Positions 4,098-36,920 are shown, numbered from the stretch's first letter. The stretch is DNA of 64,000 nt from Bacteroidales bacterium (GCA_963682005.1 OY820914.1:4964979-5028978), one strand, 5' to 3'. A program made the numbers and translations. Notes: generated by a model from the sequence alone, not told the origin.

Positions 4098-4123
4098 TTA
4101 TTCATTCATTAAAACCACAAATT

Positions 4124-16961: not shown

Positions 16962-17053
16962 CATTCTTTTCGCTACGCTTCATTCAATAAATAATCACAA
17001 TCCACAAGCTGACAATAATATAGTAGGGTAGTAATTCCGAATTTAGGGGGTAC

Positions 17054-17165
17054 GGGGGACAACGTCCCTCGCAAGATTGCGTGTGGCGGTTTACGAAGTT
17101 TACCGTCCACACGCAATCTTGCTATTGAGCCGGCGAGCTTGAATTTAGCTGTGCCGAAGGCTCAA
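17054..17165. other. compact triple-hairpin structured element between convergent genes
   Basis: Hairpins at 17054-17070, 17071-17122 and 17125-17165. The middle one is 20 bp with one bulged T at 17106. No T-run follows. Confidence 0.6.
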
Positions 17166-17939: not shown

Positions 17940-18428
17940 CTAAAGTAACCCTTCGTCAGCAAAAGTAAAATAAGCACCGCTTGATGCGATGATTAAATGA
18001 TCGAGAACTTTTATATCCAAAAGACTCCCAGCTTCTTTCATTCTCTTTGTCAATGTTATATCCGATTCACTAGGTTGAATATTCTGTGAGGGATGATTAT
18101 GACAAAGTATCAAATTACTTGCATTTGTCTGAAGCGCAAGCATAAAAACGATTTTTACATCGACAACGGTTCCACTTGTACCTCCTGAACTTAGTCTAAA
18201 CCAGCCCAGGATGTTGTTAGCCCTATTGAGAAGGAGCAAATAAAACTCTTCCTTAAGCTCAATGGTGTTTATATCAAAAAGGGGATAGAGAGCATTAAAT
18301 GCATCTCTGGAATTCAAAATCTTCGTTTTGTTGCTCGATTTTGTTTTATAACTCACAAAAATTTCGGCAAGCCCGGGACTTTTTTCACTTGTGCTTGCCT
18401 CAATGACATTTTTCATATTCCTGTTCAT
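17940..18428 (-). CDS. radC: RadC-like JAB/MPN domain protein
   Basis: JAMM motif HNHPSQNIQPSESD; start taken at MNRNMKN (the upstream ORF extension has no ATG). Confidence 0.8.
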   Translation of the reverse strand: MNRNMKNVIEASTSEKSPGLAEIFVSYKTKSSNKTKILNSRDAFNALYPLFDINTIELKEEFYLLLLNRANNILGWFRLSSGGTSGTVVDVKIVFMLALQTNASNLILCHNHPSQNIQPSESDITLTKRMKEAGSLLDIKVLDHLIIASSGAYFTFADEGLL

Positions 18429-18557
18429 ACTTTCTTTTTTAAAATGATTACTTTTTTCTATTCGGTTTTCAAAAACCAGTTCTGTCGAGGAGTATAGCGA
18501 CTGATAATTAAAAATCAAGATTGACAAAAAAACATGGAAATGTGGAATAAAATCAGA

Positions 18558-18849: not shown

Positions 18850-19728
18850 ATGAAAGAAAAAATAAAAAAGTATTTAGAGTGGAAGGGGACTTATGCCCCA
18901 CGTGCCAGTGAAAATTATAAGATCTGGTTGGATAGATTTATTGAAATATGCGGTGACAAGCCCATACAAAAATATCAGATCGGGGACTACGTGAAATATC
19001 AGAGTTGGATAGAATCTCATTTTAGCTCATATTGCGTGCAATATTCGACTGTCATTATCAAAAACTTCTTCAAATTCTACCGTGATCAGAATATTAAATG
19101 TATGTCGCCATCGTTTATAAAAATTCCTCGTGCTCACAGGAATTCACACCGGGCTATTAATGAGGAAGAGTATAGAAAAACAATATCAGGAATACCAAGT
19201 AATAACTTTCGCTCATTGCGGGACCTTTTAATAATCCGTTTTCTTTGGGATACCGGTGTGCGTGTCTCGGAACTTTGCGATCTAAACATCTCTCAGATAA
19301 ATGAGAACAGTAGCTCTTGTGCTATCTATACTAAAAAGAACGGAAACCCGCGTATTATTGTTTGGTCCGAAGAAACACACAGGTATCTGATAAAATACCT
19401 TTCCATTCGCCTTGAATTGGACAAGGTACATCATTCCTCCGCTCTTTTTCCCGGCTTAGGTATAGATCATTGTTGGAAAGGAAGGATAACATCCCGAAGT
19501 GTACAGAGAATTATAAAAATAAATGTCAGTAACGCAGGCATAAAAGAAAAAATCACCCCTCACAGTTTTCGTCATGGATGGGCACATATGCGAAGGGACC
19601 AAAACGCACCCCTGGCCTTCATTCAGAGGGGACTAGGGCACGTCAGCCCAACATCGACCTTTATTTATGAGCAGTATAACGATAATGAATTTGTAAAAAA
19701 TGCCAATGTCTATTTTAGCCCAGCTTAG
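18850..19728 (+). CDS. small tyrosine recombinase (XerC/D-like, 292 aa)
   Basis: DTGVRVSEL (Arg), HSFRHGWA (HxxR), LGHVSPTSTFIY (His/Tyr). Confidence 0.85.
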   Translation: MKEKIKKYLEWKGTYAPRASENYKIWLDRFIEICGDKPIQKYQIGDYVKYQSWIESHFSSYCVQYSTVIIKNFFKFYRDQNIKCMSPSFIKIPRAHRNSHRAINEEEYRKTISGIPSNNFRSLRDLLIIRFLWDTGVRVSELCDLNISQINENSSSCAIYTKKNGNPRIIVWSEETHRYLIKYLSIRLELDKVHHSSALFPGLGIDHCWKGRITSRSVQRIIKINVSNAGIKEKITPHSFRHGWAHMRRDQNAPLAFIQRGLGHVSPTSTFIYEQYNDNEFVKNANVYFSPA

Positions 19729-20264: not shown

Positions 20265-20468
20265 ATGAGACTATTTGATATATGCACCAGAAAGTTTTAT
20301 GAAAAAGAAGGTGAGAAAAAAGTGAAGTGGTATCGGGCAGGCATAATGAAAGAAACGGATCAGGGAACGAGATTCCTTCGTCTTTTTCACCAGCCGGAAA
20401 CCGACTTTTTCGTTTATGAAAAGGTGGAGCCGGAGAAAAAAGAGGAAGATAGGGTAATAAAATATTAA
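20265..20468 (+). CDS. hypothetical protein (67 aa)
   Basis: ORF only; 18 nt upstream of the rep-like gene start. Confidence 0.35.
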   Translation: MRLFDICTRKFYEKEGEKKVKWYRAGIMKETDQGTRFLRLFHQPETDFFVYEKVEPEKKEEDRVIKY

Positions 20469-20486: not shown

Positions 20487-20553
20487 ATGAGTCAACCACG
20501 CACCACGCCTGTTCCCAATATCATTTTTGATAGACACATGAAGGATCTTAATC
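20487..20553 (+). pseudogene. 5' fragment of the rep-like winged-helix gene, cut by IS66 insertion
   Basis: MSQPRTTPVPNIIFDRHMKDLN| joins in frame to |LAELKVLLVVIRQTLGW at 22833 once the IS and one TSD copy are removed. Confidence 0.8.
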
Positions 20554-20621
20554 GTAAGCCTTCGGCCACGAGCATCTTGTGTAGTTGATCGATCCTGACC
20601 AACTTGCTGCCAAAAACTTTT

Positions 20622-20903
20622 ATGACTCTTCATGATAAGCGTTCACAGATGATCACGATGGTTGATCTGTGGCAGCAAAGTGGTCTTAGCCAGGCAGAAT
20701 TTTCCCGGGCACAGAATGTCAAACTAGCGACCTTACGTTATTGGATCCATAAGCACCGACATGGCGATACAACCGGCTCAGGGTTTATACAACTGACCGG
20801 GATAACATCACCGGGCATCAGTATTCGTTATCCCAACGGTGTTGAACTGCTTCTACCCGTTCAGGCGCCGGCCGGGTATATAAAAATGCTGATCAGCCTT
20901 TAG
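20622..20903 (+). CDS. tnpA: IS66 accessory protein TnpA (orf1)
   Basis: HTH-like LSQAEFSRAQNVKLATLRYWI; first gene of the IS66 triad. Confidence 0.75.
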   Translation: MTLHDKRSQMITMVDLWQQSGLSQAEFSRAQNVKLATLRYWIHKHRHGDTTGSGFIQLTGITSPGISIRYPNGVELLLPVQAPAGYIKMLISL

Positions 20904-20908
20904 GTCGG

Positions 20909-21277
20909 ATGTTTTCCCTTGGCGCTGCCCGATATTACCTGTACCGGGAACCAACCGATATCCGCAGGAGTTTTGACGGTCTGTGCGGTCTGGTCACAGA
21001 ACGGTTGGGTCAGAATCCCATGAGCGGGGATGTGTTCATCTTCATCAACAAGCCACGTAACCGGATGAAATTGCTCAAATGGGAACCGGGAGGGTTCGTG
21101 CTGTTCTATAAGCGACTTGAACGAGGCACCTTTGAAATTCCCAGTACATCTTTTCAAGGGCTTTCCCATCAGATCGGCTATGGGGAACTGACCATGATGG
21201 TCACTGGTATATCAATGAAATATACAAAAAAAAGAAGGCGTTTTTTGTCACAAAATGATGTTGATAAATATCGCTGA
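20909..21277 (+). CDS. tnpB: IS66 accessory protein TnpB (orf2)
   Basis: YLYREPTDIRRSFDGLCGLV..DVFIFINKPRNRMKLLKWE matches the IS66 Orf2 signature. Confidence 0.85.
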   Translation: MFSLGAARYYLYREPTDIRRSFDGLCGLVTERLGQNPMSGDVFIFINKPRNRMKLLKWEPGGFVLFYKRLERGTFEIPSTSFQGLSHQIGYGELTMMVTGISMKYTKKRRRFLSQNDVDKYR

Positions 21278-21318
21278 AATAGTGATTTAGCAAGAGTTTT
21301 TCATGATAAATTTGAATC

Positions 21319-22779
21319 ATGGAAAGCACAGAAATGGTCACCATCAGTAAAGCAGATTTTGAGGCTCTCAAATCAGAAAATGCCTGGCTCAAACATCAGC
21401 TTTCCGAACTGAAACGTCTGATCTACGGAGCCAAAAGTGAGCGTTTCATTGCCGTCAATCCGGATCAGGCTACCTTGTTCGATCTCCCAGCAGAACAACC
21501 ATCAGAAACGCCCACAGAAGAAATCACCTATACACGCAACAAACCACAACAGGAGAAAAAGCAGCCACTTCGTCTGGAACTGCCTGCTCACCTGGAACGT
21601 CGGGAAGAAATAATCGAGCCGGAAAACCTTCCTGCCAATGCAAAGAAGATTGGTGAAACTGTTACCGAAATTTTGGAATATGAACCGGCCAGCGCTTATG
21701 TTCGTCGCATTGTCCGTCGCAAGTACATTGTGGAGCAGACCGATGAAGAGACCCGCATCGTCATTGCACCGTTACCTACCTTGCCAATACCCAAAGGCAA
21801 TGCCGGAGCCAGCATGATCGCCCATCTTCTGGTGAGCAAATTTGTCGATCATCTTCCGTTCTACCGCCAGGTCCAGATGTTCAAACGCCAGAGGCTCGAA
21901 ATCGCCGAATCGACCATTAACGGTTGGTTCAATGGAGGGTGTGATTTGATAGAGCCGCTATACCAGGCACTGAAGTCAAGAATGTTGGCATCTGATTATC
22001 TCATGGCCGATGAAACCCCGATCCCAGTGCAGACCAAGGACAAGCCCGGGGCCACACACAAAGGTTTTCACTGGGTCTATTACGATCCCGGCAACAAATT
22101 GGTGCTGTTCGATTACCGGAAAACCCGGGGGAAAGAAGGACCCGATGAACTGCTGAAGAACTACGCCGGGTATCTGCAAACCGATGGCTATACTGCCTAC
22201 AACCACCTTGAAAACACAAACAACATCACTCTTCTGGCCTGTATGGCGCATGCCCGGCGCAAGTTCGAGCATGCACAGGAGAATAATCCCACGCTAGCCG
22301 CCCAGGCATTGAAAATGTTCCAGGCCTTGTATGACATTGAACAGGACATCCGGGAAAAAGAACTGGGACCCGACGTCACCCAAATACTGCGTCAGGAAAA
22401 ATCAAAACCTACTCTCGATCGGATGGAAGCCTGGCTTAAGGAACAGATTATTGTCGTACCCCCAAAAAGCGCTATCGGAGTGGCCATTGCATACACGCTC
22501 AATCTCTGGCCTCGGCTGACCCGGTATATCGATGACGGACGCTTCCACATCGACAATAACCTAATCGAAAACAGCATCCGGCCGGTGGCGCTTGGACGCA
22601 AGAACTACCTCTTTGCCGGTTCCCATGAAGCCGCCCAACAAGCAGCTGTGATCTACTCCATCCTGGCTACATGCAAGCTACACCAGGTGGAACCCTTCGC
22701 CTATCTCACCAAAATCTTGTCCATCATCCCCGACTTCCCGGCCAATCAACTGCACACACTTCTGCCAGGGCAAAAATAG
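21319..22779 (+). CDS. tnpC: IS66-family DDE transposase TnpC
   Basis: N-terminal leucine-zipper-like region and YLMADETPIPV, YLQTDGYTAY, NNLIENSIRPVALGRKNYLFAGS motifs. Confidence 0.9.
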   Translation: MESTEMVTISKADFEALKSENAWLKHQLSELKRLIYGAKSERFIAVNPDQATLFDLPAEQPSETPTEEITYTRNKPQQEKKQPLRLELPAHLERREEIIEPENLPANAKKIGETVTEILEYEPASAYVRRIVRRKYIVEQTDEETRIVIAPLPTLPIPKGNAGASMIAHLLVSKFVDHLPFYRQVQMFKRQRLEIAESTINGWFNGGCDLIEPLYQALKSRMLASDYLMADETPIPVQTKDKPGATHKGFHWVYYDPGNKLVLFDYRKTRGKEGPDELLKNYAGYLQTDGYTAYNHLENTNNITLLACMAHARRKFEHAQENNPTLAAQALKMFQALYDIEQDIREKELGPDVTQILRQEKSKPTLDRMEAWLKEQIIVVPPKSAIGVAIAYTLNLWPRLTRYIDDGRFHIDNNLIENSIRPVALGRKNYLFAGSHEAAQQAAVIYSILATCKLHQVEPFAYLTKILSIIPDFPANQLHTLLPGQK

Positions 22780-22832
22780 CAATCATATCTCGTTGGAAAA
22801 AGATGCTCGTGGCCGAAGGGTTACTCTTAATC

Positions 22833-23230
22833 TAGCAGAGCTTAAGGTTCTTCTCGTTGTCATCCGACAAACTCTTGGCTGGGCTGACAGGCGTGGAATG
22901 TATGGAAGAAAAGAAACTGATTGGATTTCTGGTAGCCAACTAAGAGAAAAAACCGGAAGCTCTGAACGAGCTATCACTTCGGCGATAGAAACACTGGTAA
23001 TGAAAAGATTAATCGAAGTTCATGATGATAGGGGACACAAACTTTTATATTCAAAGAATAGACAAGGGAAGATCCGCCTGTATTACAGTCTGCACCCTTC
23101 TGTTTTTAATACTGTGGATAACTCCCTGAAAAGCCCTCTAACTTCTGCAAATTTTGCGGAGGACTTCCGCAAAAATTACGGAACACTTCTGCAAAAAATG
23201 CGGATAACAAAAGAAACTCTACAAAACTAA
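22833..23230 (+). pseudogene. 3' fragment of the rep-like winged-helix gene
   Basis: Continues the 20487 reading frame. The ATG of the tracked 22793 ORF lies just upstream of, and its first codons run through, the IS66 right IR, so it is chimeric. Confidence 0.8.
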
Positions 23231-23240
23231 CTCTTACAAA
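22941..23240 (+). repeat. direct repeat copy 1 (rep 3' end) flanking the Rhs cassette
   Basis: Aligns with 30531-30829; the last ~110 nt are nearly identical and the upstream part is more diverged. Confidence 0.8.
23143..23204 (+). repeat. three 18-bp imperfect palindromes TTCYGCAAAWWWTRCGGA at exact 22-bp spacing (iteron/operator-like)
   Basis: Starts at 23143, 23165 and 23187; the same triplet is conserved in copy 2 at ~30731-30794. Confidence 0.6.
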
Positions 23241-23334
23241 GAGGAAGGAGATTAAGTTTATTCAAGACATTAAATCCTATTACTAATCCCAAAAGAGGTT
23301 CTTTCCAACGTTCTGAATTCATATTTTTATTGTT

Positions 23335-23577
23335 TTACGAACTTAGAAATTTAATAGCGACAATAATCATTATTGCTCCAAATGCGATACCAAAACTTGA
23401 AATAGTTCTAAGCATAGGATTTTTTATAGAACGACTTGTGATCAATAATGATGATTCCTCTTTAATTTTCTTATCAATTTTCCAATGCAAGTAAGCAGAC
23501 AACGAAACTATTATTAAACCTATTGCTAATCCTAAGAGAGGTTGTATATGATAAGCTATGTATCCAATCATTTTCAT
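23335..23577 (-). CDS. small 2-TM membrane protein, candidate immunity protein (80 aa)
   Basis: Paralog of the 87-aa ORF (IQPLLGLAIGLIIVSL vs WQPLSGLIIGLLLVTL); downstream of the rhs toxin. Confidence 0.55.
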   Translation of the reverse strand: MKMIGYIAYHIQPLLGLAIGLIIVSLSAYLHWKIDKKIKEESSLLITSRSIKNPMLRTISSFGIAFGAIMIIVAIKFLSS

Positions 23578-23583
23578 AAATTC

Positions 23584-23847
23584 TTATAGAACTCCTAAAT
23601 AAAGAAGTGCTAAAACAATCCATAACCCACCTATCATAGGAATGAAACTAATTAAAACATTATACAAACCATTTGCGGACTTTTCACTCATAAATTGATT
23701 TCTGAAAATATGCTTTGAAATCCATTCAACTGGTTTTTTTCTCCAACGTGTATAAAGAAAGCAAAACAGAGTTACTAATAGTAGCCCAATTATTAGACCT
23801 GATAATGGTTGCCAATATTTTATTACATATAACATAAAATTATTCAT
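23584..23847 (-). CDS. small 2-TM membrane protein, candidate immunity protein (87 aa)
   Basis: See the paralog above; 6-nt spacing. Confidence 0.55.
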   Translation of the reverse strand: MNNFMLYVIKYWQPLSGLIIGLLLVTLFCFLYTRWRKKPVEWISKHIFRNQFMSEKSANGLYNVLISFIPMIGGLWIVLALLYLGVL

Positions 23848-23874
23848 GATATTTATTTTATAATATTTTATTTA

Positions 23875-24399
23875 TCATTGCCCTAGTATTTTAGTTCTAT
23901 ACGTACCTTCAAGTATCAGCCTGGCAAGATCATCCTCAACTTTTATGTTTGGGTTTATTCTCAATATCTCTTTCATAATAGCTTGTAGATCTTTAGAATT
24001 GAAGTGACCATAAGGTATAAGATACCTCACAAAAATACCCTTGGGTTCTTTGTAGTCAAATCCAAGATAGTTAGTATATGGAGTTTTCTTTTGTTTAACC
24101 GATACAAAGTCTAATATCTCTCCTGATTTTGCACCATTGAAATAACTAATTATAGTACTATCTTTAAACTCAATACGATCATAAAGAATAGTCCAAACAT
24201 CTAACATTAATTTAACCACCCATAGAACTAAAAGAACTATCCAAAATTCTTGATTCTTTAAAGTAGTCATTATTCTGAAATTATGCATTAGCAGAAGAAG
24301 ACAAATCGACATTACAATTGCCCAGGGCAATGTACTTTTGAATACTATTTTTTTATCTACTCTAAATATTTTATCTGGCAATGTTTTTTGTGTTTTCAT
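23875..24399 (-). CDS. 2-TM membrane protein with cytosolic domain, candidate cognate immunity protein (174 aa)
   Basis: Starts 9 nt after the rhs stop; hydrophobic helices WAIVMSICLLLLM and FWIVLLVLWVVKLML. Confidence 0.55.
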   Translation of the reverse strand: MKTQKTLPDKIFRVDKKIVFKSTLPWAIVMSICLLLLMHNFRIMTTLKNQEFWIVLLVLWVVKLMLDVWTILYDRIEFKDSTIISYFNGAKSGEILDFVSVKQKKTPYTNYLGFDYKEPKGIFVRYLIPYGHFNSKDLQAIMKEILRINPNIKVEDDLARLILEGTYRTKILGQ

Positions 24400-24408
24400 A
24401 TTTAATGT

Positions 24409-27400
24409 TTATTTCTTCTTGTTAGTTCCAGAACTAATAATACTCATTGGTGCTTCTACCGTCCAGCCAATTTTGCTTAATCCATATTGTTGGGCAGCGT
24501 ATGTACCAAGGTTTAATGTACTGCCAGCAAAGCTACCAACCCATGAACCAAATCCCGAACCCAATATTGAACCAGCAACTTTTACTGGATTTACACTATG
24601 ATCCCCAGTAGCTACTTGTGTAGATAAATTAGTTGCACCAGCTATTCCCATAGCGAATTTTATGCTTATATCTGGTCCTGTCATTGCTCCACCAGCATAA
24701 CTAAGACCTACAATTTTAGCATAATCACCAAACGAAGTTTGTTTATTTTGCATTTGATCTTCCAATATCTGACTACCAACATTGAATGTTGTATTTATTG
24801 TTCCTCTAACTACGGCTTGTGAATTAAATAATGTGTTAGCTACTGTACTTGCAACACTGCTCCCTGCAATCATAGCTCCACCTACTGCAGTTGCTCCACC
24901 AACCACTCCAATGGCTGCTCCCGTGGCATATGGGTGATCCATAGCCATCTGCCAACCACCTCCCATATATTGGGCCGCTTGTCCAACTTCTCCTGAAAAA
25001 TTATTCCATGATTGTGTACCAGACAAGTATTCTCCAAACCATTTTCCACTCGGATCACTTAGTATAATCGGATTGTTTCTGGCATAACTATAACTATTTA
25101 ACTGTTGTGGATCATTTAAAAATTTATCTGGATTCCAGAACACCGGATCCTCTGAAATAAACCTCCCAGCCGTGCTTTGATGATAACGGGCGTTTAGATA
25201 GTTTAAGGAAGTGTCTGGGTCATAATGTTGACCGATGTATTGTTTCTGATTCGTGTGGCTCCCAGAGGAGATTCTTTGTGAACCAAAGGGGTAGTAATCG
25301 AGTAATTCTACTTGTCCTCCATTTGAATCTGAAACGACATTGGTTGAACCAAGATGGTCTGGGTGGATATAGTATGGAGTAACGACAGAATTAGCTGTTT
25401 CAATGGTTGACACTAATTGATTACCCGCATATATGTTCTTGGTCTTTTTGGATCCTCCATAGTTGTAATACTGATTTGGATATTCTGTTGTCAGAGTGCC
25501 ATTACTAGATAATACCCTATTACCTTGTTCGTCGTAAAGGTACTCTCGAGTAAATGTTCCGTTAGTGGTTTCAGTCAGTTGATTTTTGTAATTCCAGGTG
25601 TTGGTGAGGGTACCGTCGTCAGTATTGTTACCATTGTGATCGTAGGTGTTTGTGACACTGTTAATTGAAGTGGCAGCGTGGGGGTTAGCGTAGTTGGTGC
25701 CACTGTTTCCTGCGTAAGTATAACTTCCCACTGGACCTGAAGTGATATTTCCAATTGCGTTGTAGGTAAAATTTTGAGTGTAAGGAGTCTGACCAAATGG
25801 CACATCGGTGATAGTGGCAGAAGTCAGACGATTTAGATCGTCATAGGTATAATCGGCTGTCTTGGATCCGCTTGTGCTTGAATCATCCACGATTTCAGTA
25901 ATGTTGCCATCAGCATCATACTCGTATGTGGTCTTTTGAAGACTTGTTGGTACTTGGTTGGTCGTTGATTTGTCAGTTACTCTGTATAAATTATTTGGGT
26001 CGTATGTATTCGTAGTCGTTACTCTATTGGCATAATTTATTTCTGTTGGTTGGTCAGTCGGCGCATAATCAAAATTCGAAATAACATCGGTGAAAGATCC
26101 TCCGCTTTCTTTATATTCTATTTTTTCCAGTAACCCAGCCGAATTGTAAACATAAAGAACTTGAGCATTGTCGGGATAAGTAATTACTAGCATATTACTC
26201 TGGCGATCATGAGTGTATGAAGTGGTGTAAATATTTTTGGTGACAGTTTTTTCCTCACTTGCGACATTCCCATCTGCGTCATATGTGTAATCCGTTTCCA
26301 CTCCACTTAGCATAACCGCGGAACATAGTTTTCCTATACCGTCTGAACATGAATCATAAGTATAGATAATATCTGTGCCAGTTGTTCCTGTAGAATCTTC
26401 AGTTAGTTTTCTGTTTACATCATCATAGGTATAGTCCACCGTATCGCCGTTAGGATTTATGCTTTCCGTCAAATTACCTGAATCATCATAGGTATATGCC
26501 CATGTTCCATAAGTTGCATCATTTTGCGCATGAAGATCTTCAGCCGTTAAACGATGTCCCAAATTATCATAGGTAAAATTCCGGACATTGCCAAGCGCGT
26601 CAGTTGTATTTATTAGATTGCCATTTAGATTCCAAGTGTAGTACGTGGAGTAAGTATAAGAGCCAGTTCTTTCGTCAACTCTCACCAAATTTTTATACGC
26701 ATCGTAGTAATAATTTTTGACTTTTCCACGTGGGTCACTCACGTCAATTTCCCATGGAGTGTAAGAATAAGCGGTAACACCTGACGCGTTGGTCAATGTA
26801 TGAATACGCTGCACGGGATCATAGGCGTATGTCGTATATAATGCTGTGGTTGTAGTTGGAGAAGTCTTGGATGATCCACTCCCTGTATATGGTAAAGATT
26901 CTTTTTGTACCAAACCAAGATTATTGTAAACAGTGTCTTTGACATTAAAGTTGCCAGAAGTTTCTGCCTCTTTTCTCTCTTGAATTAAACGTCCAAGCCC
27001 ATCAAAATATTGATAAGTATTAGCTGTGGTTGAAGAATTAAGATAGTTAACTTTTTGTACAGAGACTGCATTTGAAGTATCTGTATAGACATAAGCAGTT
27101 TTAGCGTCCAAAGTTGAAGGTGATGTTAGATCAGGAATTTTTTCGGTTAGCACTCGTCCAAGCCCATCGTAAGTTGTCTCTTTCGTTAACCCATTTGGAT
27201 CAGTAGTATCTATCACTTTGCCAGTTGAATAGTCATAGGTATATTCTGTGCTATTTGAAAGGGGATCGGTTATTGTGGTTGGGTAAAGGTGATATGTATC
27301 GTAAGAATAGGATGTTGTTTTTCCTCGTTCGTCAGTGGAAGTAATGGGAATACCATAGGTTGTATAGTATGATTTTTGAGTATTAACATTACGTGTCACA

Positions 27401-30400
27401 GAAGCCATTTTTTCAATTTCAGTTGGATTCCCTGCGCCGGTGGTACCAAATGTAAGTTCGTCATAATACGTTCTTGTATCCTGAATTGTTGTCGCGTTTT
27501 GGTCTTGGATAATATCATCGGAGAGTAAACCGATAACATTTTCACCGTCAGAGGCGTAAGAGAAAGACTCCGTTAACATATCATTCCCTGTGTCGGCAAA
27601 TGATCCATCACTACTTCCCGTTACTTCTCCCCAATCAATTTTTTGAGTTAAATTGCCATTAGTATCGTCATAGGTATATTCTTGTGCCGTGTCTTTGTGG
27701 TTATTAGTGCCATCGTAGGTAAGTGTAGTGGTGCGAGTAAGTTTTACAAAATCATGTCCTGTACCAATGTTGTATGAATCCCATTTATTTATTATGTCAG
27801 CATACAAATTATCAGCACCGTCATATTGTTCGACACGATATGGTTTTCCAATTTTTGCGTACGAATCGCTGTATTCACCTAGCGAAGAATTTGTACCATC
27901 TCCTTGATGAAAATATGTTTTTTTTACGTTTCCAACATCATCTGTCACAGAAGTTGAAGCAAAACCTGCAAACTTGCGAGTAAGATAATCATCAAAATAA
28001 TATTTACCTCCTTGGTAAGAATAATTATTAGTTTCCGAATTTCCTAAACCATCATTATTGGTGATCTGAGAAACAACATCTATGGACATAGGTAAATTTG
28101 GATTTAGGAGGTTACTCGATCCATCTTTGAATAACTGTGTTGCTTTGTAAGTTATTTGAGTATTACCACCTTCGGGATATGTAATTTGAGTCAAGTTATT
28201 CACTCTGGAATTTGTCGTATTATTCAAATACACGTAATGTAATCCATCACTGCCTGCTCTAACCAGGTCCACTAAATTATCTCCATTAACATCAATTAAC
28301 TGGAGGCCATGATTTTGATAGTTACTTTGGATAAAAAACTCTTTGTTTCCAGATGAATCTACCTTGTCCGGCATCGTCCAAGTGGAAGAAACATCTGTCC
28401 ATCCAGAACCATTGTTTAAGTAAATTTTAGGAGCATTGATGGAACATGGGACAGCAGTAGGATAAGCAAAATCATTGGCACACACGAAATCAGGTAATCC
28501 ATCGCCATTGATATCTGTCATTCTTACGCCATAATCTCTGTTTGGGGGACCAACCACAAATTGCATCGGAACAGATGCCGACCAAGTAGAATCATAAGTC
28601 CAACCAGAACCGTTGTTTAAATACACATAATGCAATTCGTCATTGCCAGCTCGTACAAGATCAGCTAAATTATCTCCATTGACATCGATTAACTGGAGAC
28701 CATAAACTTGATAATTGCTGATTACAAAATATTCTTTGTTCCCAGATGAATCTATCTTGTCCGGCATCGTCCAAGTGGAAGAAACATCTGTCCATCCAGA
28801 ACCATTGTTTAAGTAAATTTTGGGATCGTTAATATGACATTGAGAAGGAGCACCACCAGTTGGAATATTATTCGCACAAACGAAATCAGGTAGTCCATCC
28901 CCGTTGATGTCTGCCGTTCTAACTCCCTGATCTCTGAAATTGCTACCTGTAAGCAGGAATTGCATTGGAACAGCCGAAGACCATGTGGAATTATAAGTCC
29001 AACCAGAACCGTTGTTTAAATACACATAATGCAATCCATCATTACCGGCTCGTACGAGGTCAGTCAAATTATCTCCATTGACATCGATTAATTCAAGACC
29101 TTGGTTTTGATAGGAACTATTTATAAAATATTCCTTATTCCCCGATGAATCAACTTTGTCCGGCATCGTCCAGGTAGAAGAAACATCCGTCCAGCCAGAG
29201 CCAGTATTTAAATAAATTTTGGGAGCATTGATGGAACATGGGACAGCAGCAGGATAAGCAAAATTATTGGCACATATGAAATCAGGCAGTCCATCTCCGT
29301 TGATGTCTGCCGTTCTTGTACCATAATCCTTGGTGGGAATACCAAGTAAAAACTGCAACGGAACAGCCAAGGACCAGGTGGAGTCATAAGTCCAGTTTGC
29401 CGTTGACGTTTTATAATCAAAATCTGTAGCGGGAAGAACAGTAACATTGTTTGACCCATCCTGACCTGATTCAATTATCGTCTCCAAAAGAGAACCGGTG
29501 CCATTGTCGGCTGTGGTATAAGTAAAATCATATTTTTCTGCCCAGACACTATTTATTTTGGTATTGATTTCACTAATTACATAATTTGATTTAACCGAAA
29601 ACCCAGTAGAATAGGAAATTGGACCGCCTGTTCGACTAGCGGTCGTAAAATTAACTTCAAAAATTCCATCAGTAGTTCCATTCCCGGTATAAACTATTTG
29701 TAATGGATATATCTGACCTGCGTCTTTGTAGTAGGTATAAGAAATATAATTATCGTTAGTATCTCTCACCTCTTCCAGCATCCATTTATAAATATGAGAC
29801 GAATTATTTGGATCATCTTGCCTGGCTTGGGCATTGGCTCCAAAAATATATTGAGTGCCGTCTTTACTTGTAACTACCCAACCACTTCCTGATTTTTCGT
29901 ATTTAATAAAATCACCCAATTCATCCTTGGCTCTGTAATTTGTGGAATCAAGGGCAATTAATTCTCCTGAAAGAGATGAAGAATAATAGTCTTCGGAGAA
30001 AAGCTCTTGGCTTCCTGTTTTATTAATTCTCTCTATACTCGGAATATCTATTGACCAACCAGATCCGATAACTGAATCCAAAACAGAATTGGAACTATTG
30101 TACATTAAAGTTACATCGGGAGTCATTTTATTTCTTCCTGGTGGCACGTTAATGGAATATTTATAAATCATGGCACCAGTAGAATTATCAACATCAGTGG
30201 TAAGACGAGCTTTTTTAGTAGTATTACTATTTAAAATTGGATTTTCTTCAAAATCTTCAGTCAAGGTTTCTAGGTTTTGTTCAATTTGAGGTCCTGATTG
30301 AATATTTGTTTCACCATTATTAACAACTTGGTTGCCTTGATCTATGGTTTCTTCTTCCGCAAATACTTTGACTATAGGATAAATTATAATAAAAAAAGCC

Positions 30401-30471
30401 ACTAAAATAGATAGTGACTGAACCAATGCGCGAACCAAAAAACTTTTTGGTGGCAAAATATTGTTTTTCAT
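24409..30471 (-). CDS. SpvB/TcdB-N + FG-GAP x3 + RHS/YD-repeat polymorphic toxin with glycine-zipper C-terminal domain (2020 aa)
   Basis: N-terminal signal-anchor. GSGWSIDIPSIER (SpvB-like). DINGDGLPDF/VNGDNLxDLV FG-GAP units. Many YD repeats (YTYDxxGN). RHS core end YARNNPIILSDPSGKW, then a 209-aa Gly/Ala-rich tail (24412-25038). Confidence 0.9.
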   Translation of the reverse strand: MKNNILPPKSFLVRALVQSLSILVAFFIIIYPIVKVFAEEETIDQGNQVVNNGETNIQSGPQIEQNLETLTEDFEENPILNSNTTKKARLTTDVDNSTGAMIYKYSINVPPGRNKMTPDVTLMYNSSNSVLDSVIGSGWSIDIPSIERINKTGSQELFSEDYYSSSLSGELIALDSTNYRAKDELGDFIKYEKSGSGWVVTSKDGTQYIFGANAQARQDDPNNSSHIYKWMLEEVRDTNDNYISYTYYKDAGQIYPLQIVYTGNGTTDGIFEVNFTTASRTGGPISYSTGFSVKSNYVISEINTKINSVWAEKYDFTYTTADNGTGSLLETIIESGQDGSNNVTVLPATDFDYKTSTANWTYDSTWSLAVPLQFLLGIPTKDYGTRTADINGDGLPDFICANNFAYPAAVPCSINAPKIYLNTGSGWTDVSSTWTMPDKVDSSGNKEYFINSSYQNQGLELIDVNGDNLTDLVRAGNDGLHYVYLNNGSGWTYNSTWSSAVPMQFLLTGSNFRDQGVRTADINGDGLPDFVCANNIPTGGAPSQCHINDPKIYLNNGSGWTDVSSTWTMPDKIDSSGNKEYFVISNYQVYGLQLIDVNGDNLADLVRAGNDELHYVYLNNGSGWTYDSTWSASVPMQFVVGPPNRDYGVRMTDINGDGLPDFVCANDFAYPTAVPCSINAPKIYLNNGSGWTDVSSTWTMPDKVDSSGNKEFFIQSNYQNHGLQLIDVNGDNLVDLVRAGSDGLHYVYLNNTTNSRVNNLTQITYPEGGNTQITYKATQLFKDGSSNLLNPNLPMSIDVVSQITNNDGLGNSETNNYSYQGGKYYFDDYLTRKFAGFASTSVTDDVGNVKKTYFHQGDGTNSSLGEYSDSYAKIGKPYRVEQYDGADNLYADIINKWDSYNIGTGHDFVKLTRTTTLTYDGTNNHKDTAQEYTYDDTNGNLTQKIDWGEVTGSSDGSFADTGNDMLTESFSYASDGENVIGLLSDDIIQDQNATTIQDTRTYYDELTFGTTGAGNPTEIEKMASVTRNVNTQKSYYTTYGIPITSTDERGKTTSYSYDTYHLYPTTITDPLSNSTEYTYDYSTGKVIDTTDPNGLTKETTYDGLGRVLTEKIPDLTSPSTLDAKTAYVYTDTSNAVSVQKVNYLNSSTTANTYQYFDGLGRLIQERKEAETSGNFNVKDTVYNNLGLVQKESLPYTGSGSSKTSPTTTTALYTTYAYDPVQRIHTLTNASGVTAYSYTPWEIDVSDPRGKVKNYYYDAYKNLVRVDERTGSYTYSTYYTWNLNGNLINTTDALGNVRNFTYDNLGHRLTAEDLHAQNDATYGTWAYTYDDSGNLTESINPNGDTVDYTYDDVNRKLTEDSTGTTGTDIIYTYDSCSDGIGKLCSAVMLSGVETDYTYDADGNVASEEKTVTKNIYTTSYTHDRQSNMLVITYPDNAQVLYVYNSAGLLEKIEYKESGGSFTDVISNFDYAPTDQPTEINYANRVTTTNTYDPNNLYRVTDKSTTNQVPTSLQKTTYEYDADGNITEIVDDSSTSGSKTADYTYDDLNRLTSATITDVPFGQTPYTQNFTYNAIGNITSGPVGSYTYAGNSGTNYANPHAATSINSVTNTYDHNGNNTDDGTLTNTWNYKNQLTETTNGTFTREYLYDEQGNRVLSSNGTLTTEYPNQYYNYGGSKKTKNIYAGNQLVSTIETANSVVTPYYIHPDHLGSTNVVSDSNGGQVELLDYYPFGSQRISSGSHTNQKQYIGQHYDPDTSLNYLNARYHQSTAGRFISEDPVFWNPDKFLNDPQQLNSYSYARNNPIILSDPSGKWFGEYLSGTQSWNNFSGEVGQAAQYMGGGWQMAMDHPYATGAAIGVVGGATAVGGAMIAGSSVASTVANTLFNSQAVVRGTINTTFNVGSQILEDQMQNKQTSFGDYAKIVGLSYAGGAMTGPDISIKFAMGIAGATNLSTQVATGDHSVNPVKVAGSILGSGFGSWVGSFAGSTLNLGTYAAQQYGLSKIGWTVEAPMSIISSGTNKKK

Positions 30472-30530
30472 AATATTAGAAGTATATCACTCCAAATAAT
30501 TTTTAAAAGTAAAAAGGTGGAAAAGTCAAT

Positions 30531-30819
30531 TAGGAGAAAAGACTGGAAGCTCTAAACGTGCATCACTTCTGCAATAAAGACACTGGTAATGAAAAAATTA
30601 ATCGAAGTTAATGATGACAGGGGACACAGACTTTCATATTCCAGGGATCGACAGGGGAAATCCAGGCTCTATTTCAGCCTTACCCCTACTGTCCTAAACC
30701 CTGTGGATAACCCGCTCAAAAGCCCCTTAACTTCCGCAAATTTTGCGGAGGACTACCGCAAAAATTACGGAACACTTCTGCAAAAAATGCGGATAACAAA
30801 AGAAACTCTACAAAATTAA
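30531..30819 (+). pseudogene. truncated, frameshifted second copy of the rep-like gene 3' end (direct repeat copy 2, 30531-30829)
   Basis: 76-aa ORF 30589-30819 is homologous to the C-terminus of the 22833-23230 product. Upstream homology continues to ~30531 with a 1-nt indel. Confidence 0.75.
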
Positions 30820-30979
30820 CTCTTACAAATATAAGCATTAGGCTTATCATCCACCTGACAAATTGACATAATATAAAAACCGGTATAACATTTGAATATT
30901 AGGAGTCCTCTCCTTACCCCAAAGTGCGATGGGTCGATAGGATAGAATATAAATGTTTTATTAACGAATATTAAATACC

Positions 30980-31234
30980 ATGGAAAAAAATCTAAAAAAG
31001 GATGTGACTATAATTGTCAATGGCGAACAAAAAGTGGTCCCAAAAGATGAGATAACCTATGAAGAGGTCGCAACTTTAGCGTTCCCTGATTTCGCAAATC
31101 ATCCAGAGCGAACATACGCCATTACTTATGAACGAGGACAAGGAAATAAACCTCAGGGAATTTTGTCACCTGGGGATAGTGTTAAAGTTAAAGATGGGAT
31201 GATATTTCATGTTAGAATCACTGGCCAGTCATAA
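30980..31234 (+). CDS. ubiquitin-like beta-grasp protein ('multiubiquitin'-type single domain, 84 aa)
   Basis: VTIIVNGEQKVV..ITYEEVATLAF...YAITYERGQGNKPQGILSPGDSVKVKDGMIFHVRITGQS matches the remembered family pattern. Confidence 0.65.
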   Translation: MEKNLKKDVTIIVNGEQKVVPKDEITYEEVATLAFPDFANHPERTYAITYERGQGNKPQGILSPGDSVKVKDGMIFHVRITGQS

Positions 31235-32375
31235 TCCTGACATTGAAAGATTACGGCAAAAAGGATATGCAATATCTTTTGATAGTAACTATTTAGTTAT
31301 CCGTGATATCTCATACTTAGATAATAATAAGAATCTACAACAAGGTGCTATTGTTTCTAAGGTTGTCTTTATTGATAACGAGCATGTCAAACAAGAAGAT
31401 CATCAAATTTTCTTTTGTGGCTCTCATCCCCACCAAGCGGACGGAAATCCAATAAAAAATTTTGGTGGAGGTGAGGTTAACTTGCAATTATCATCACCCG
31501 ATCTAGTTGTTCAAAGATCATTTTCTAATAAACCTGCTGCGGGGTACGAGGATTTCTTTGATAAAATTGAGACATATGTCACAATAATTTCCGGACCGGC
31601 TATGCAACTCTTTGGAGAAGAGGCAAACCCTTTTACCTTCCGCTCAATTCTAGGAACAACTGAGTCAGTTTTTAAATGTCATGACACATTGACTTCTAGA
31701 GCAGAGATAGGTGATTTAGCGCTAAAATTCAAAGACGATGTAATTGCCATAATCGGACTTGGGGGAACAGGTTCATATCTCCTCGATTTTTTAGTTAAAA
31801 CACCTGTTAAAGAAATTCGGGCATTTGATTGCGATAAGTACCATGTACATAATGCTTTTCGTAGTCCCGGAAAACTGGAGATATCAGAACTAGGTAAACC
31901 TAAGACTAACGTCTATCAATCCAGGTATGAAAATTTCAGAAATGGCCTCAGTTTTTATAATAAATATATTCAGTCTGATTCTATGTCGGATTTAGAAGGG
32001 GTAACATTTGCTTTTGTATGTGTAGATAAGGGAACTGCACGCAAAGAGATTTTTGACCTTCTTTTTAAAATGAATATTTCTTTCATTGATGTAGGTATGG
32101 GTCTTGACAGAATGCAAGGAATTCTTTCGGGAATTTTGCGTACTACATATTTCTCAAATGAAACAGCCCAAGAACTAATCAAGAAAAACTATGTCCCGCT
32201 AACTGATATTAATGATGAGGAATATCGTAATAATATTCAGATTTCTGAACTTAATGCTTTAAATGCTTGTATAGCAGTAATCAAGTATAAGAAAATTCGT
32301 GGTTTCTATGTAGAAGATGATTCTTTCCACCAAATGCTTTTTACCATTGATACGCTATCTCACCTTGGAGAATGA
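31209..32375 (+). CDS. ThiF/E1-like adenylyltransferase with an extra ~170-aa N-terminal domain (388 aa)
   Basis: Rossmann IAIIGLGGTGSYLLDFL, FDCDKYHVHNAFRSPG, FVCVDKGTARKEI. 26-nt overlap with the Ubl gene. Confidence 0.75.
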   Translation: MLESLASHNPDIERLRQKGYAISFDSNYLVIRDISYLDNNKNLQQGAIVSKVVFIDNEHVKQEDHQIFFCGSHPHQADGNPIKNFGGGEVNLQLSSPDLVVQRSFSNKPAAGYEDFFDKIETYVTIISGPAMQLFGEEANPFTFRSILGTTESVFKCHDTLTSRAEIGDLALKFKDDVIAIIGLGGTGSYLLDFLVKTPVKEIRAFDCDKYHVHNAFRSPGKLEISELGKPKTNVYQSRYENFRNGLSFYNKYIQSDSMSDLEGVTFAFVCVDKGTARKEIFDLLFKMNISFIDVGMGLDRMQGILSGILRTTYFSNETAQELIKKNYVPLTDINDEEYRNNIQISELNALNACIAVIKYKKIRGFYVEDDSFHQMLFTIDTLSHLGE

Positions 32376-32809
32376 TAAAAAAAATTAAATTAATAAAAGT
32401 TCAATATATCCCAGGTCAACTCGAAGAAGGAACTTTATATCTTTCAGAAGAATATAAGGTTGCAGTTCATTTGTGTCCGTGTGGTTGTGGTAACAAAGTT
32501 GTAACTCCTCTTGGTCCAACTGATTGGTCATTCAAAGAGGTTGATGGTCAACCTTCACTTTATCCTTCAATTGGAAACTGGCAAATACCATGTAGATCCC
32601 ATTATTTTATCATTAACGGGATTATTGAATGGTCATATCAATGGACTAAAGAAGAAATTGAAACAGGAAGAAAAATCGAAGACTTGCAGAGAACACAGTA
32701 CTACAATGATCTGCCTCATTTCCAAAAAAAACAACACTTAATTATTAGAATTTTTAACCGATTAATGAGAATTTTTAAGAACCGAACTAACCAGAGAAAA
32801 AAAGGATGA
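32372..32809 (+). CDS. Cys-rich small protein (DUF6527-like), third gene of the Ubl operon (145 aa)
   Basis: HLCPCGCGNKV ... IPCRSHY Cys/His cluster; 4-nt overlap with the E1 gene. Confidence 0.55.
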   Translation: MIKKIKLIKVQYIPGQLEEGTLYLSEEYKVAVHLCPCGCGNKVVTPLGPTDWSFKEVDGQPSLYPSIGNWQIPCRSHYFIINGIIEWSYQWTKEEIETGRKIEDLQRTQYYNDLPHFQKKQHLIIRIFNRLMRIFKNRTNQRKKG

Positions 32810-32823
32810 TAATATTAATATTT

Positions 32824-34413
32824 TTATTTTATGTTGAACTCTTCATTAAAACTCTTCTTCCTGAGTTCAGGATTTAATTTCGCAGCTTTATTATAGTACT
32901 TTTTCGCAATTTTTCTATCTTTTAATCTTTTCTCATAAAAATACGAATACGCCCAATAAACATACCATGTATCTGGTTCAATCTCCTGGGCTTTATCATA
33001 ATGTTGCTTTGCTTTTTCGAAATCGTTTTCTGCACCTAACATGGCAGCATAATTAATATTAAATTTCGCACTATTTGGATTGATTTCCAATGCTTTCTCA
33101 TAATGTATTTTTGCTTCTTTAAAATTTTTCAACTTTGTCCATAGAAAAGACGCATAACACTCATGAAACTCTGGATTGTTAGGACTCATTTCCACGGCTT
33201 TCTCATAGTGCATCTTTGCTTCTTCATTTTTTTCTAAATCTCTTTCTAATAATTTTCCAAAATAATAATGTATTATATCTCTTGGGTTCAGATTAATCGT
33301 TTTTAAGTAGTACGTTTCAGCATCTCTATACTTTTTAAGTTCTTCAAGAACAAGGGCTGCATAAAAATATCCCTTATAATAATCAGGCCTTACCTCAATA
33401 CACCTCTGATAATATGATAATGCAGTAACATAATCTTTTCGTTGAAACAATATTAAATTTCCATATTTAAGGTTTCCCCAGAAATTATTTGGGTTTAGTT
33501 CTAACCCGGTTCTGTATAGTTCTTCACTTTTATTGAAATCTTTTAGATTGTAATAGCAGTCCCCTGCTAGTATATGAATATTTTCATTGAAATATACTTC
33601 ATTTGCTATTTTATTTATATTCTCGATTGCTTTTTTATCATCACCTTCCAAATAGAACTTATTTGCTAAAAACCAAAAAATTACATTTTCGATTTCTAAC
33701 TTGACCTCTCCTTCCGAAAGTTCTACAAGTCTTAAAATTTCTAATTTTTTTGTTTTTCCAGGTGACTTAATAAATTCTTTTGATTCATTGTTAGGGTCGA
33801 GATAATGAAAATATACTTGGTGGGATAGGTCTCTAGGTTTAGAATCAATACCCCAAATAACCATATTAGTGTTTGGAATTTGCTTCCCAATATCCTCAGC
33901 CATTTTAGAAGTGTTGTCAAAAGTACTGTAGATTAAGTATTCTATTTCTAATCCATTCTTAACTAAATCAACATTCTCAAGCAATCTTCTTTTCAATTCA
34001 AAACCTGCAAGAGTTTCAACTGGATATTCTTCAGGGTTATAAAATGGTAGAATAAGAATACTATATTTTTTAGGATCAAATAATATCTTATTGAAAGATT
34101 GTTCTTTAATACTCTCAGGCTGCTTATCTCTTACAACAATCAGTTTATTAAGATTGACTGTTTTTTTGACATCTTCGATGTATTGTAGGATTATTTTAAT
34201 GGTTCTGTCATGATGACCAACTATTTTCGGATCGAAAAAATTCAACAAAGTACCTTGTGCGAGATATTTCTTTGTTTTTAGATAAATTTCATCTCTAAGG
34301 GCGTCAAAGGATTTGCTATTCTTGCTTAGGGTGGTTATTAATTCTTTTCTCGTACTGTCCATATAAGCCTGTCGAACTTGCTCACGTAAAGATTCTAAAG
34401 AAATTCCTTCCAT
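32824..34413 (-). CDS. TPR-repeat protein with unassigned ~250-aa N-terminal domain (529 aa)
   Basis: C-terminal half is repeated A..Y...L..NP.. TPR units; stop lies 15 nt from the stop of the Ubl operon (convergent). Confidence 0.7.
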   Translation of the reverse strand: MEGISLESLREQVRQAYMDSTRKELITTLSKNSKSFDALRDEIYLKTKKYLAQGTLLNFFDPKIVGHHDRTIKIILQYIEDVKKTVNLNKLIVVRDKQPESIKEQSFNKILFDPKKYSILILPFYNPEEYPVETLAGFELKRRLLENVDLVKNGLEIEYLIYSTFDNTSKMAEDIGKQIPNTNMVIWGIDSKPRDLSHQVYFHYLDPNNESKEFIKSPGKTKKLEILRLVELSEGEVKLEIENVIFWFLANKFYLEGDDKKAIENINKIANEVYFNENIHILAGDCYYNLKDFNKSEELYRTGLELNPNNFWGNLKYGNLILFQRKDYVTALSYYQRCIEVRPDYYKGYFYAALVLEELKKYRDAETYYLKTINLNPRDIIHYYFGKLLERDLEKNEEAKMHYEKAVEMSPNNPEFHECYASFLWTKLKNFKEAKIHYEKALEINPNSAKFNINYAAMLGAENDFEKAKQHYDKAQEIEPDTWYVYWAYSYFYEKRLKDRKIAKKYYNKAAKLNPELRKKSFNEEFNIK

Positions 34414-34943: not shown

Positions 34944-35258
34944 ATGTTCACGGAGAGATTATACCTTGAAGAGATACAAAAATTACTTCATTATCGTGAC
35001 CGAAGATCGATAAGACGATGGTGCAGGAATAACCACGTCCGGATTTTATCCGATAATGGCAGTAATAAGCAATTTGTATTAAGGGATGAATTTGAAAGAG
35101 AATTAAATAACCTCCATTCCAAAAGCCCAGTGGAAAAGAAATTCTACAAGAGAATGTTAAAAAGGAATCTCATAGACAAGGTGAAAAGAGCTGCGAAATA
35201 CAGGCCACAAGGGGAATACGAAAAAGATTTCTTGTCAATATTTACAAATCTATTATAA
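34944..35258 (+). CDS. excisionase-like HTH DNA-binding protein (104 aa)
   Basis: LYLEEIQKLLHYRDRRSIRRWCRNNHVRIL HTH-like segment; ends 8 nt upstream of the integrase gene. Confidence 0.5.
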   Translation: MFTERLYLEEIQKLLHYRDRRSIRRWCRNNHVRILSDNGSNKQFVLRDEFERELNNLHSKSPVEKKFYKRMLKRNLIDKVKRAAKYRPQGEYEKDFLSIFTNLL

Positions 35259-35265
35259 AGGGACT

Positions 35266-36833: not shown

Positions 36834-36835
36834 CG

Positions 36836-36920
36836 TACCCGGGGCGGGAATCGAACCCGCACGCCCTCGTCGGGCACAGGATTTTAAGTCCTGCGTGTCT
36901 ACCAGTTCCACCACCCGGGC
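36836..36920 (-). tRNA. tRNA-Leu(UAA)
   Basis: Reverse complement GCCCGGGTGGTGGAACTGGTAGACACGCAGGACTTAAAATCCTGTGCCCGACGAGGGCGTGCGGGTTCGATTCCCGCCCCGGGTA. Long variable arm, anticodon loop CTTAAAA, close to E. coli leuZ. CCA not encoded. Confidence 0.95.

Follow-up and report, generated by a model that had tools for sequence, protein, structure and literature searches.

Direct repeats of a Rep-like gene 3' end flank an Rhs toxin cassette in a mobilisable Bacteroidota island

The stretch analysed here, called the window, comprises 64,000 nt of one strand from a Bacteroidales bacterium (GCA_963682005.1, OY820914.1:4964979-5028978). It holds a ~34 kb mobilisable island located at a tRNA-Leu gene of an uncultured Bacteroidota genome, and within this island two direct copies of the 3' part of a Rep-like gene (rep) flank an Rhs toxin gene and three small genes downstream of it. 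The features are collected in Table 1. The initial annotation of this DNA had seen the repeat correctly, but it overlooked both the tRNA-Leu island and the IS66-family element that splits rep. Two modules were found in the variable region of the island, the Rhs cassette and, beyond a 306-nt relic that constitutes the second repeat copy, a multiubiquitin/E1/BubE operon accompanied by a TPR gene.

Copy 1 (22934-23240) and copy 2 (30524-30829) aligned at 85.4% identity over 308 columns (blastn, E 3.7e-96), and a repeat search of the window returned an ungapped core of 268 nt (22973-23240 and 30562-30829) at 85%. Both lie in the same orientation and carry the same type of palindromic box. Only 3 mismatches fall within the final 100 nt, the copies contain a common identical stretch of 60 nt, and their shared sequence finishes ...AACTCTTACAAA, beyond which they diverge. 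A 34-nt part of this end, the tail, occurs exactly twice in the window, compared to 0 occurrences expected by chance. Copy 2 starts at about rep codon 57 and runs to the stop codon, and one missing base causes a frameshift. Between the copies lie 7283 nt (23241-30523) with four open reading frames (ORFs), all on the minus strand. The two homologous segments, the truncation and 1-nt indel of the second, and an interval occupied only by the rhs gene and three membrane-protein genes were therefore confirmed as first described.

The structure could in principle be an assembly artefact in which reads of two strains or two elements were joined at the conserved tail, and short-read contigs do break inside the tail, a segment that is hard to assemble. 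However, the positions of these breaks, with contig L090 of the same strain terminating at 23197 and contig L032 beginning at 30786, support a true repeat because the last unique 31-mers of such a repeat fall there. A separate long-read contig of the same strain, L031, showed 0 mismatches to the window over 15.5 kb that cover 4.8 kb of the Rhs gene, copy 2, the multiubiquitin/BubE operon, the integrase gene and mutS. L090 links the cassette to the first tail, the right-hand junctions of both copies are present in other assemblies of the same strain, and the exact Rhs and integrase proteins are recorded on one 5.27 Mb contig. An artefact is extremely unlikely.

The Rhs protein of 2020 aa is laid out as a signal/transmembrane (TM) segment, SpvB, FG-GAP, DUF6443, RHS repeats, a core end and a C-terminal domain. 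The RHS/YD repeats of the shell matched PF05593 at 1.3e-23 (Pfam), and the core ends in a PxxxxDPxG-type motif, NPIILSDPSGKW, at about aa 1805. The C-terminal domain beyond it (~210 aa) is Gly-rich and hydrophobic and had no match in Pfam or NCBIfam. Each of the three small ORFs (80, 87 and 174 aa) has two TM segments predicted from hydropathy, and the 87-aa and 80-aa ORFs resemble paralogs; an exact-protein look-up gave no record of the latter. Homologs of the 174-aa ORF (70-80% identical) were always found directly after large SpvB/FG-GAP/RHS genes, at loci without the 87-aa and 80-aa ORFs. This context supports reading the Rhs protein and the 174-aa ORF as a genuine toxin-immunity pair that would here be carried as cargo. 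The homologs' loci are ordinary chromosomal contexts with neither rep nor ori nearby, and the cassette flanks and the sequence downstream of the second tail had no blastn match in about 90 loci. Also, the Rhs gene contains three tandem-like repeats of ~300 nt at 28220-29311 (70-82% identical, spacing ~395 nt), which are probably FG-GAP/VCBS-type units and a likely cause of assembly breaks there.

The first repeat copy is part of a rep gene that is interrupted after codon 22 by an IS66-family element of 2271 bp. Its TnpB and TnpC matched PF05717 (4.8e-31) and PF03050 (7.3e-95), its terminal inverted repeats (31 nt, 90% complementary, GTAAGCC.../...GGTTAC) have the GTAAGC start of the family, and it is flanked by a perfect 8-bp target duplication, TCTTAATC, at 20546-20553 and 22825-22832. 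Removal of the element and one duplication copy restored an intact 154-aa ORF, 90% identical to P0001. Because IS66 splits the copy-1 gene and copy 2 is a frameshifted relic, both rep copies are inactive and no intact rep is left in the island. The GC content of the IS66 element reaches 0.51, compared to ~0.36 in its surroundings. A short-read contig, L029, stops 28 nt inside the element, which suggests that the genome has several IS66 copies.

The restored Rep had 225 homologs of about 154 aa with identities of up to 90%, almost all from Bacteroidota metagenome-assembled genomes. Homologs were also seen in bins labelled Minisyncoccia and Armatimonas (L071, L076, L080, L083, L085-L087), which could be due to cross-phylum spread or to binning contamination. 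The name rep, as used by the initial annotation, is weakly founded. PF04492 (Phage_rep_O) gave a borderline match to a 145-aa fragment (29.1 bits, cut-off 28.7), TIGR01610 scored 23 bits, under its cut-off of 45.5, and the predicted structure (pLDDT 73) matched only generic MarR-type winged-helix regulators (TM-score 0.38). A Rep profile found no match among PDB sequences, and a search of 72,556 PLSDB plasmids found no Rep homolog.

The repeated segment ends in an element that resembles a replication origin. In copy 1, a DnaA-box-like sequence, TGTGGATAA, is followed by three palindromic boxes at a spacing of 22 bp and then by an AT-rich tail of 37 nt with two AACTCT(T)ACAAA units, which is the combination of repeated sites and an AT-rich region seen with lambda-O-type initiators. 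Copy 2 has a complete element of the same kind, and an nhmmer profile of the element scored 108 bits there and 115 at copy 1. In every relative examined, the final ~110 nt of the rep gene were far better conserved than the remainder, and the 34-nt tail, ATAACAAAAGAAACTCTACAAAACTAACTCTTAC, showed 0-3 mismatches across the family, even where Rep identity was ~51-60%. Column conservation at third codon positions, computed over 48 unique sequences, averaged 0.50 in the rep body, 0.72 in the box region and 0.89 in the tail. Past the stop codon it averaged 0.94 in the first 10 nt and 0.48 in the following 40 nt. Homology among the closest relatives is lost ~10 nt beyond the stop codon, which is also where it is lost in the window. 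Weak similarity that includes a TTATTA-like motif is often retained for 10-20 nt beyond the end of the tail in several lineages; the boundary, though sharp, therefore does not fall on one exact bond. Neither the near-identity of the final 110 nt nor the endpoint common to both copies is a mark of the event that produced the repeat, because the segment is conserved across the family, and neither property is informative on recent exchange.

The flanks of box 3 covary symmetrically, as expected if they are half-sites of a dimeric binding protein. The CCGC...GCGG box set was found in 5/5 full-length sequences with the recognition-helix type SERAIT..IE.L, and these sequences have four different N-terminal types. 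We infer that the tail region is a replication origin, or at least a set of Rep-binding sites. The consensus fold showed small palindromes inside boxes 1 and 3 only, with the tail unstructured. A structured site of the attC or oriT (transfer origin) kind at the tail was rejected, as there is no conserved stem and the only palindromes are within boxes. A tail pattern search of viral contigs and an exact 41-nt scan of species-representative genomes found no match.

The divergence between the two copies bears on their origin. Over codons 57-121 they are 79% identical, with synonymous and nonsynonymous differences (pS and pN) of 0.48 and 0.13 and a dN/dS of 0.19. Copy 1 has a nearer match in L009 (85%), a rep from a different metagenome, than in copy 2, and copy 2 stands no further from L002 and L009 (82%) than from copy 1. 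In-situ duplication of the rep 3' end, for example during cassette insertion, followed by divergence would account for the direct orientation and the shared box type. However, the 21% divergence is mostly synonymous and implies long evolution as a working gene, and the copies found together in L001 and L025 are likewise 80-87% identical rather than near-identical. In-situ duplication is therefore very unlikely. Because of the mostly synonymous divergence and the closeness of copy 1 to L009, copy 2 instead derives from another rep lineage, where it had long evolved as a working gene by the time of its truncation, and the view of the two copies as a duplication of one gene was not upheld.

Exchange within rep is also indicated by other members of the family. 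Between RadC and rep codon ~60, L017 and the window share 90-100% identity, which drops to 57-72% in the stretch up to the conserved boxes. The two halves of rep have equal median synonymous divergence (0.75 and 0.76 over 378 pairs), and individual pairs are discordant: 0.25 vs 0.71 for the two L001 modules, A and B (p 9e-5), 0.35 vs 0.73 for L018/L024, 0.32 vs 0.73 for L009/L017 and 0.36 vs 0.66 for L017/window. We conclude with moderate confidence that the rep genes are mosaic. The breakpoint of L017 and the left edge of copy 2 are no more than ~30 nt apart; the coincidence could be due to chance or to the exchange of a 'specificity module' made up of recognition helix, boxes and tail.

Related loci keep a common order of RadC, recombinase, a 64-67-aa ORF, rep with its tail, variable content, excisionase and integrase, where the locus extends that far. 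The variable stretch between rep-tail and excisionase is 1-11 kb long, and in the closest relatives it begins right after the tail and extends to the excisionase/integrase genes. Directly after the tail, L025 has a UvrD-like helicase, L027 a small ORF and a Dam methylase, the P0018 contigs AbiEii/Fic/bAvd genes, and L001 outer membrane protein (OMP)/Kelch genes. The point just past the rep 3' end is thus the cargo junction of the island family, as the initial annotation had supposed; the opposite pattern, with always one rep copy and no cargo polymorphism, was looked for and is not what the relatives show. A strain-level allele with a single repeat did not turn up in the assemblies of the same strain. 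A syntenic relative on the P0002 contig has no cargo between rep and a TPR gene, followed by two small ORFs and a 477-aa integrase. P0002 was rejected as an empty-site allele of the window island, the TPR gene read from short contigs with the same Rep protein being only 35% identical.

Two further arrangements were noticed among the relatives. An ORF of ~90 aa starting with M..(K/T)YPYTL.Q lies ~25 nt past the tail in many more distant members (L007, L008, L013, L022, L027, L036 and L037) and is absent after both tails of the window. L033 and the P0018 contigs, from one host, have a circularly permuted order of 66-aa ORF, rep, cargo, RadC and recombinase beside the ribosomal L27 gene, and the contig parts examined contain no 477-aa integrase, relaxase or coupling protein (T4CP). 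This suggests a minimal element of ~8 kb whose integration would rely on the small recombinase and take place between the gene of that enzyme and the 66-aa ORF.

A profile search found extra ori-like copies in 4/32 other loci with at least 3 kb downstream (L001, L017, L025 and L027), all in direct orientation and all downstream of the primary copy, to which they are 80-87% identical. Two complete modules of 66-aa ORF and rep lie 8.3 kb from each other in L001. In L025, one full copy is accompanied by a relic that retains its tail but has an internal deletion, and by the beginning of a third rep gene, with the locus running out before the third tail. L017 has an eroded box/tail relic 2.5 kb past rep that brackets two genes, and L027 a tail relic of 57 nt. 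The left limits of the extra copies differ in every case; on the right, those of L001, L025 and L027 extend to the tail end, of which the eroded L017 relic falls short. Palindromes of the attC kind that would delimit each cassette of an integron-like array were not seen, and the repeat units vary in length. The bracketed cargo of L017 (4017-6063) comprises a 358-aa ORF and a 327-aa ORF with a RelA/SpoT-like motif, and that of L025 (10505-20203) a UvrD-like helicase, an nSTAND/FGE-sulfatase protein and a phosphoribosyltransferase. Both look defence-like.

The best explanation, which we consider probable with some reservation, is that cargo was added by recombination between related elements at the rep/ori module and that a deletion followed. 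A related element would have recombined homologously with the resident island inside this module, either as a cointegrate or by Campbell-type insertion of a circle with a rep fragment and the Rhs cassette. The incoming cargo, most simply the Rhs cassette, would have been placed after the first tail, leaving the resident cargo after the second. A later deletion would have trimmed the redundant second backbone to the 306-nt relic, and IS66 would have been inserted after the accretion. The repeats would then be scars of cargo accretion. Loss of the cassette by RecA-type deletion is plausible because the copies share the 60-nt identical stretch, and the same-strain assemblies gave no sign of it.

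A related possibility is that one crossover with a small circle carrying a rep 3' fragment, ori and the Rhs cassette was sufficient, with no large deletion. This predicts what is found, namely that the first copy is full-length, that the second is truncated at its 5' side and that the two enclose the cargo, and the foreign origin of copy 2 and the identical stretch suit such a crossover. However, the existence of the circle is unsupported by any observation, the varied left limits of relics elsewhere and the internal deletion in L025 fit decay by deletion better, and L001 retains a complete second module, as whole-element accretion predicts. We regard the small circle as doubtful.

Another possible explanation is site-specific capture of cargo at the tail by the XerD-like recombinase, at a relaxase nick site or through a replication-linked process. 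Units ending in the tail would be inserted and excised there, as in integrons or rAID-1 arrays. A tyrosine recombinase is always encoded ~1 kb upstream, conservation in the 48 sequences has dropped to background by ~10 nt beyond the stop codon, the tail end is retained by three of the four secondary copies (L001, L025 and L027), all four are direct, and L025 has three units. In Bacteroidales, rAID-1 also offers a precedent for recombinase-linked, repeat-delimited arrays (10.1101/471110). Against this, the rep part of a unit varies from 57 nt to the full module of 67-aa ORF and rep, which gives no fixed minimal site, and the tail has neither inverted arms nor a conserved hairpin. The recombinase scores far under the integron-integrase cut-offs, breakpoints also occur within the rep body, only ~12% of elements have more than one unit, and the weak similarity 10-20 nt past the tail in several lineages leaves no single-phosphodiester boundary. 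Site-specific capture is accordingly judged unlikely. It is likewise improbable that a widespread family of Bacteroidota islands uses the rep 3' end, boxes and tail included, as a dedicated site for capturing cargo, with precise site-specific or replication/transfer-linked exchange at the tail that might involve the XerD-like recombinase always encoded nearby. If it were, the family would be an integron-like platform for toxins and defence whose exchange unit consists of recognition helix, cognate boxes, tail and cargo. Of the proposal that a module was captured by recombination at, or targeted to, the rep 3' end, accretion at that place is favoured and a tail-targeted mechanism is argued against.

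Several points weigh against accretion by homologous recombination. The same product would result from a homologous and from a site-specific crossover at the tail, and these data do not distinguish the two. No cassette-less strain-level allele, deletion junction or circle junction was found in the same-strain assemblies, all of which agree with the window; an exact look-up of window proteins for a cassette-less allele returned same-strain assemblies only, all consistent with it. The 'empty' relative P0002 is a family-level comparison for which no DNA is available, and short contigs with its Rep protein carry a TPR gene only 35% identical to that of the window. No donor context was found for the Rhs cassette, the chromosomal loci of its homologs being without rep or ori. 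The discordant pairs in the synonymous-site comparison were picked post hoc, after a max-chi-square scan whose breakpoints were confounded by the higher conservation of the N-terminal half and which the synonymous-site test replaced. Finally, with respect to the candidate ori function, Rep had no homolog on PLSDB plasmids and no sequence match in PDB, and its predicted fold matched only the generic MarR type.

The island is bounded by 63-nt att repeats (98% identical, 34 kb apart), and the att core has only two copies in the window, both at the island ends. Classical att-site accretion is excluded, since the window contains no internal att copy. The 477-aa integrase gene ends 136 nt from tRNA-Leu, which gives the arrangement of an integrase next to a tRNA gene with terminal direct repeats, and the same tRNA-Leu is adjoined by at least five related elements. 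An Rfam scan of the window found only two tRNAs. The left part of the island encodes the T4CP, a relaxase, ArdC, an AlwI-type restriction-modification system and a DUF4747 protein; the middle RadC, a 292-aa XerA/XerD-like recombinase, the 67-aa ORF, the Rep-like gene and the repeat/Rhs locus; and the right part the multiubiquitin/E1-like/BubE operon, the TPR gene, an excisionase-like ORF and the 477-aa integrase. The relaxase and T4CP were recognised; four ORFs at 3020-5928 had no Pfam match and could include mating-pore genes. An AAA_13 protein is also encoded in the island.

Table 1. Coordinates of features in the window (positions counted from its first nucleotide)
Feature	Position	Strand	Basis
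attL, 63-nt copy of the tRNA-Leu 3' part, island left end	2769..2831	+	repeat search
Conserved ~110-nt non-coding element with internal palindrome, left edge of backbone block	17033..17153	.	blastn
RadC-like JAB gene, backbone	17940..18527	-	PF04002; beside recombinase in most related loci
292-aa XerA/XerD-like tyrosine recombinase, backbone	18850..19728	+	PF00589
67-aa ORF, backbone	20265..20468	+	adjoins rep on its upstream side in almost all related loci
Rep-like gene, 5' fragment, codons 1-22	20487..20553	+	tblastn, reconstruction
IS66-family element, 2271 bp: small ORF, TnpB, TnpC	20554..22824	+	PF05717, PF03050
Rep-like gene, 3' fragment, codons 23-154 and stop; overlaps copy 1 (22934-23240)	22833..23230	+	PF04492, blastn
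Ori-like element 1 (DnaA-box-like 23113-23121; three palindromic boxes 23141-23204; AT-rich tail 23204-23240)	23113..23240	+	direct repeats, family-wide DNA conservation, box half-site covariation
Three small ORFs (80, 87, 174 aa), putative immunity genes	23335..24399	-	hydropathy, homolog context
Rhs/YD-repeat toxin, 2020 aa	24409..30471	-	Pfam, motif, C-terminal sequence
Repeat copy 2, second Rep-like gene relic with complete ori-like element 2	30524..30829	+	blastn, nhmmer
Ori-like element 2	DnaA-box-like 30702-30710; boxes 30730-30793; tail 30793-30829	+	sequence comparison
Second cargo module: multiubiquitin, DUF6791+ThiF (E1-like), DUF6527/BubE operon	30980..32809	+	PF14452, PF20590+PF00899, PF20137
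TPR-repeat protein, within variable region	32824..34413	-	Pfam TPR families
104-aa excisionase-like ORF and 477-aa tyrosine integrase, right edge of variable region	34944..36699	+	PF00589
tRNA-Leu(taa), integration target; attR 36831-36893	36835..36920	-	ARAGORN, Rfam, repeat search

The conserved non-coding element at the left edge of the backbone block was found in L017, L015 and L025 at 90-93% identity and matches itself in inverted orientation; it is a candidate oriT or regulatory site. The 292-aa recombinase matched the XerA, XerD and XerC models of NCBIfam far under their equivalog cut-offs and scored 56.7 and 26.4 bits against integron-integrase models with cut-offs of 265 and 435, which does not place it among the IntI proteins. 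The gap between its gene and the 67-aa ORF contains a conserved non-coding stretch (19840-19960) with repeated TGTCGCA(T/C)AAT boxes and two short palindromes, which may be a recombinase site or a promoter/operator. The multiubiquitin operon stands directly after the second tail, with a distant version in the cargo region of L040, and looks like a bacterial ubiquitin-like conjugation system. Homology to the family restarts at the excisionase and integrase genes, with a blastn match to L037 from 34986 and synteny in L037, L049, L052, L053, L057 and L059.

The locus illustrates the shuffling of toxin and defence cargo in an undescribed but common family of Bacteroidota islands, and the exchange takes place beside a short DNA element whose conservation far exceeds that of the overlapping protein. 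The 34-nt tail is a simple handle for finding such islands and their cargo in metagenomes. If the junction is enzymatically targeted, it represents a new cargo-capture system; if not, the locus is a clear case of ordinary accretion between related elements.

Integrative conjugative elements (ICEs) of the SXT/R391 group have a conserved backbone, carry cargo at fixed hotspots and form hybrids. The island resembles them in its conserved backbone, its cargo hotspot and the mosaics that arise from recombination between related elements. In contrast to SXT/R391, it belongs to another phylum and has an unrelated backbone, its hotspot adjoins a Rep-like gene with a conserved 3' DNA element, relics remain between modules, and no dedicated Bet/Exo-type recombination genes were seen in the island. 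Homologous recombination between related SXT/R391 elements, with mosaics as the outcome, is described in parts of the literature on this group (e.g. PMC4147863). Tandem accretion of ICEs, integrative mobilisable elements (IMEs) and cis-mobilisable elements (CIMEs) by site-specific integration, as in ICESt1/ICESt3, has been reviewed (PMC5704250). The island is similar in that related elements or their remnants lie in direct orientation and redundant parts have later decayed, but the joints of ICE/IME accretion are att sites, whereas the internal joint of the island is a rep/ori segment.

In the rAID-1 arrays of Bacteroidales, a tyrosine recombinase gene lies beside repeat-separated cargo for interbacterial conflict (10.1101/471110). 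As in these arrays and in integrons, to which the resemblance is looser, the island has a recombinase gene next to conflict-related cargo separated by repeated sequence. Unlike in either, its repeats are gene relics of variable length without a hairpin and form at most three units, its recombinase is not an integron integrase by NCBIfam, and its cargo includes a whole toxin gene, not immunity genes only.

The origin of phage lambda lies inside the gene of its initiator, O, and has repeated palindromic sites and an AT-rich stretch. The Rep-like protein is comparable in the match of its N-terminal winged helix to Phage_rep_O and phage_O_Nterm, at borderline or sub-cut-off scores, and its gene in the palindromic sites spaced by ~22 bp and the AT-rich stretch that follows. 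Unlike O, it has only 154 aa and lacks the C-terminal half, and its sites are at the 3' end of the gene. The element provides a testable case of an origin-like site embedded in the gene of its own predicted binding protein.

The repeats of classical Rhs arrays consist of Rhs core fragments and bring about the exchange of toxin tips. The locus is similar to Rhs orphan-module loci in having an Rhs toxin, immunity-like genes downstream and direct repeats around them, but its repeats stem from an island gene that is not related to Rhs, and the whole Rhs operon lies between them. What differs from SXT/R391-type exchange, ICE/IME accretion and the rAID-1 arrays is that the scaffold for recombination is the 3' half of a Rep-like gene with an ultra-conserved ori-like element, relics of which are left between the modules.

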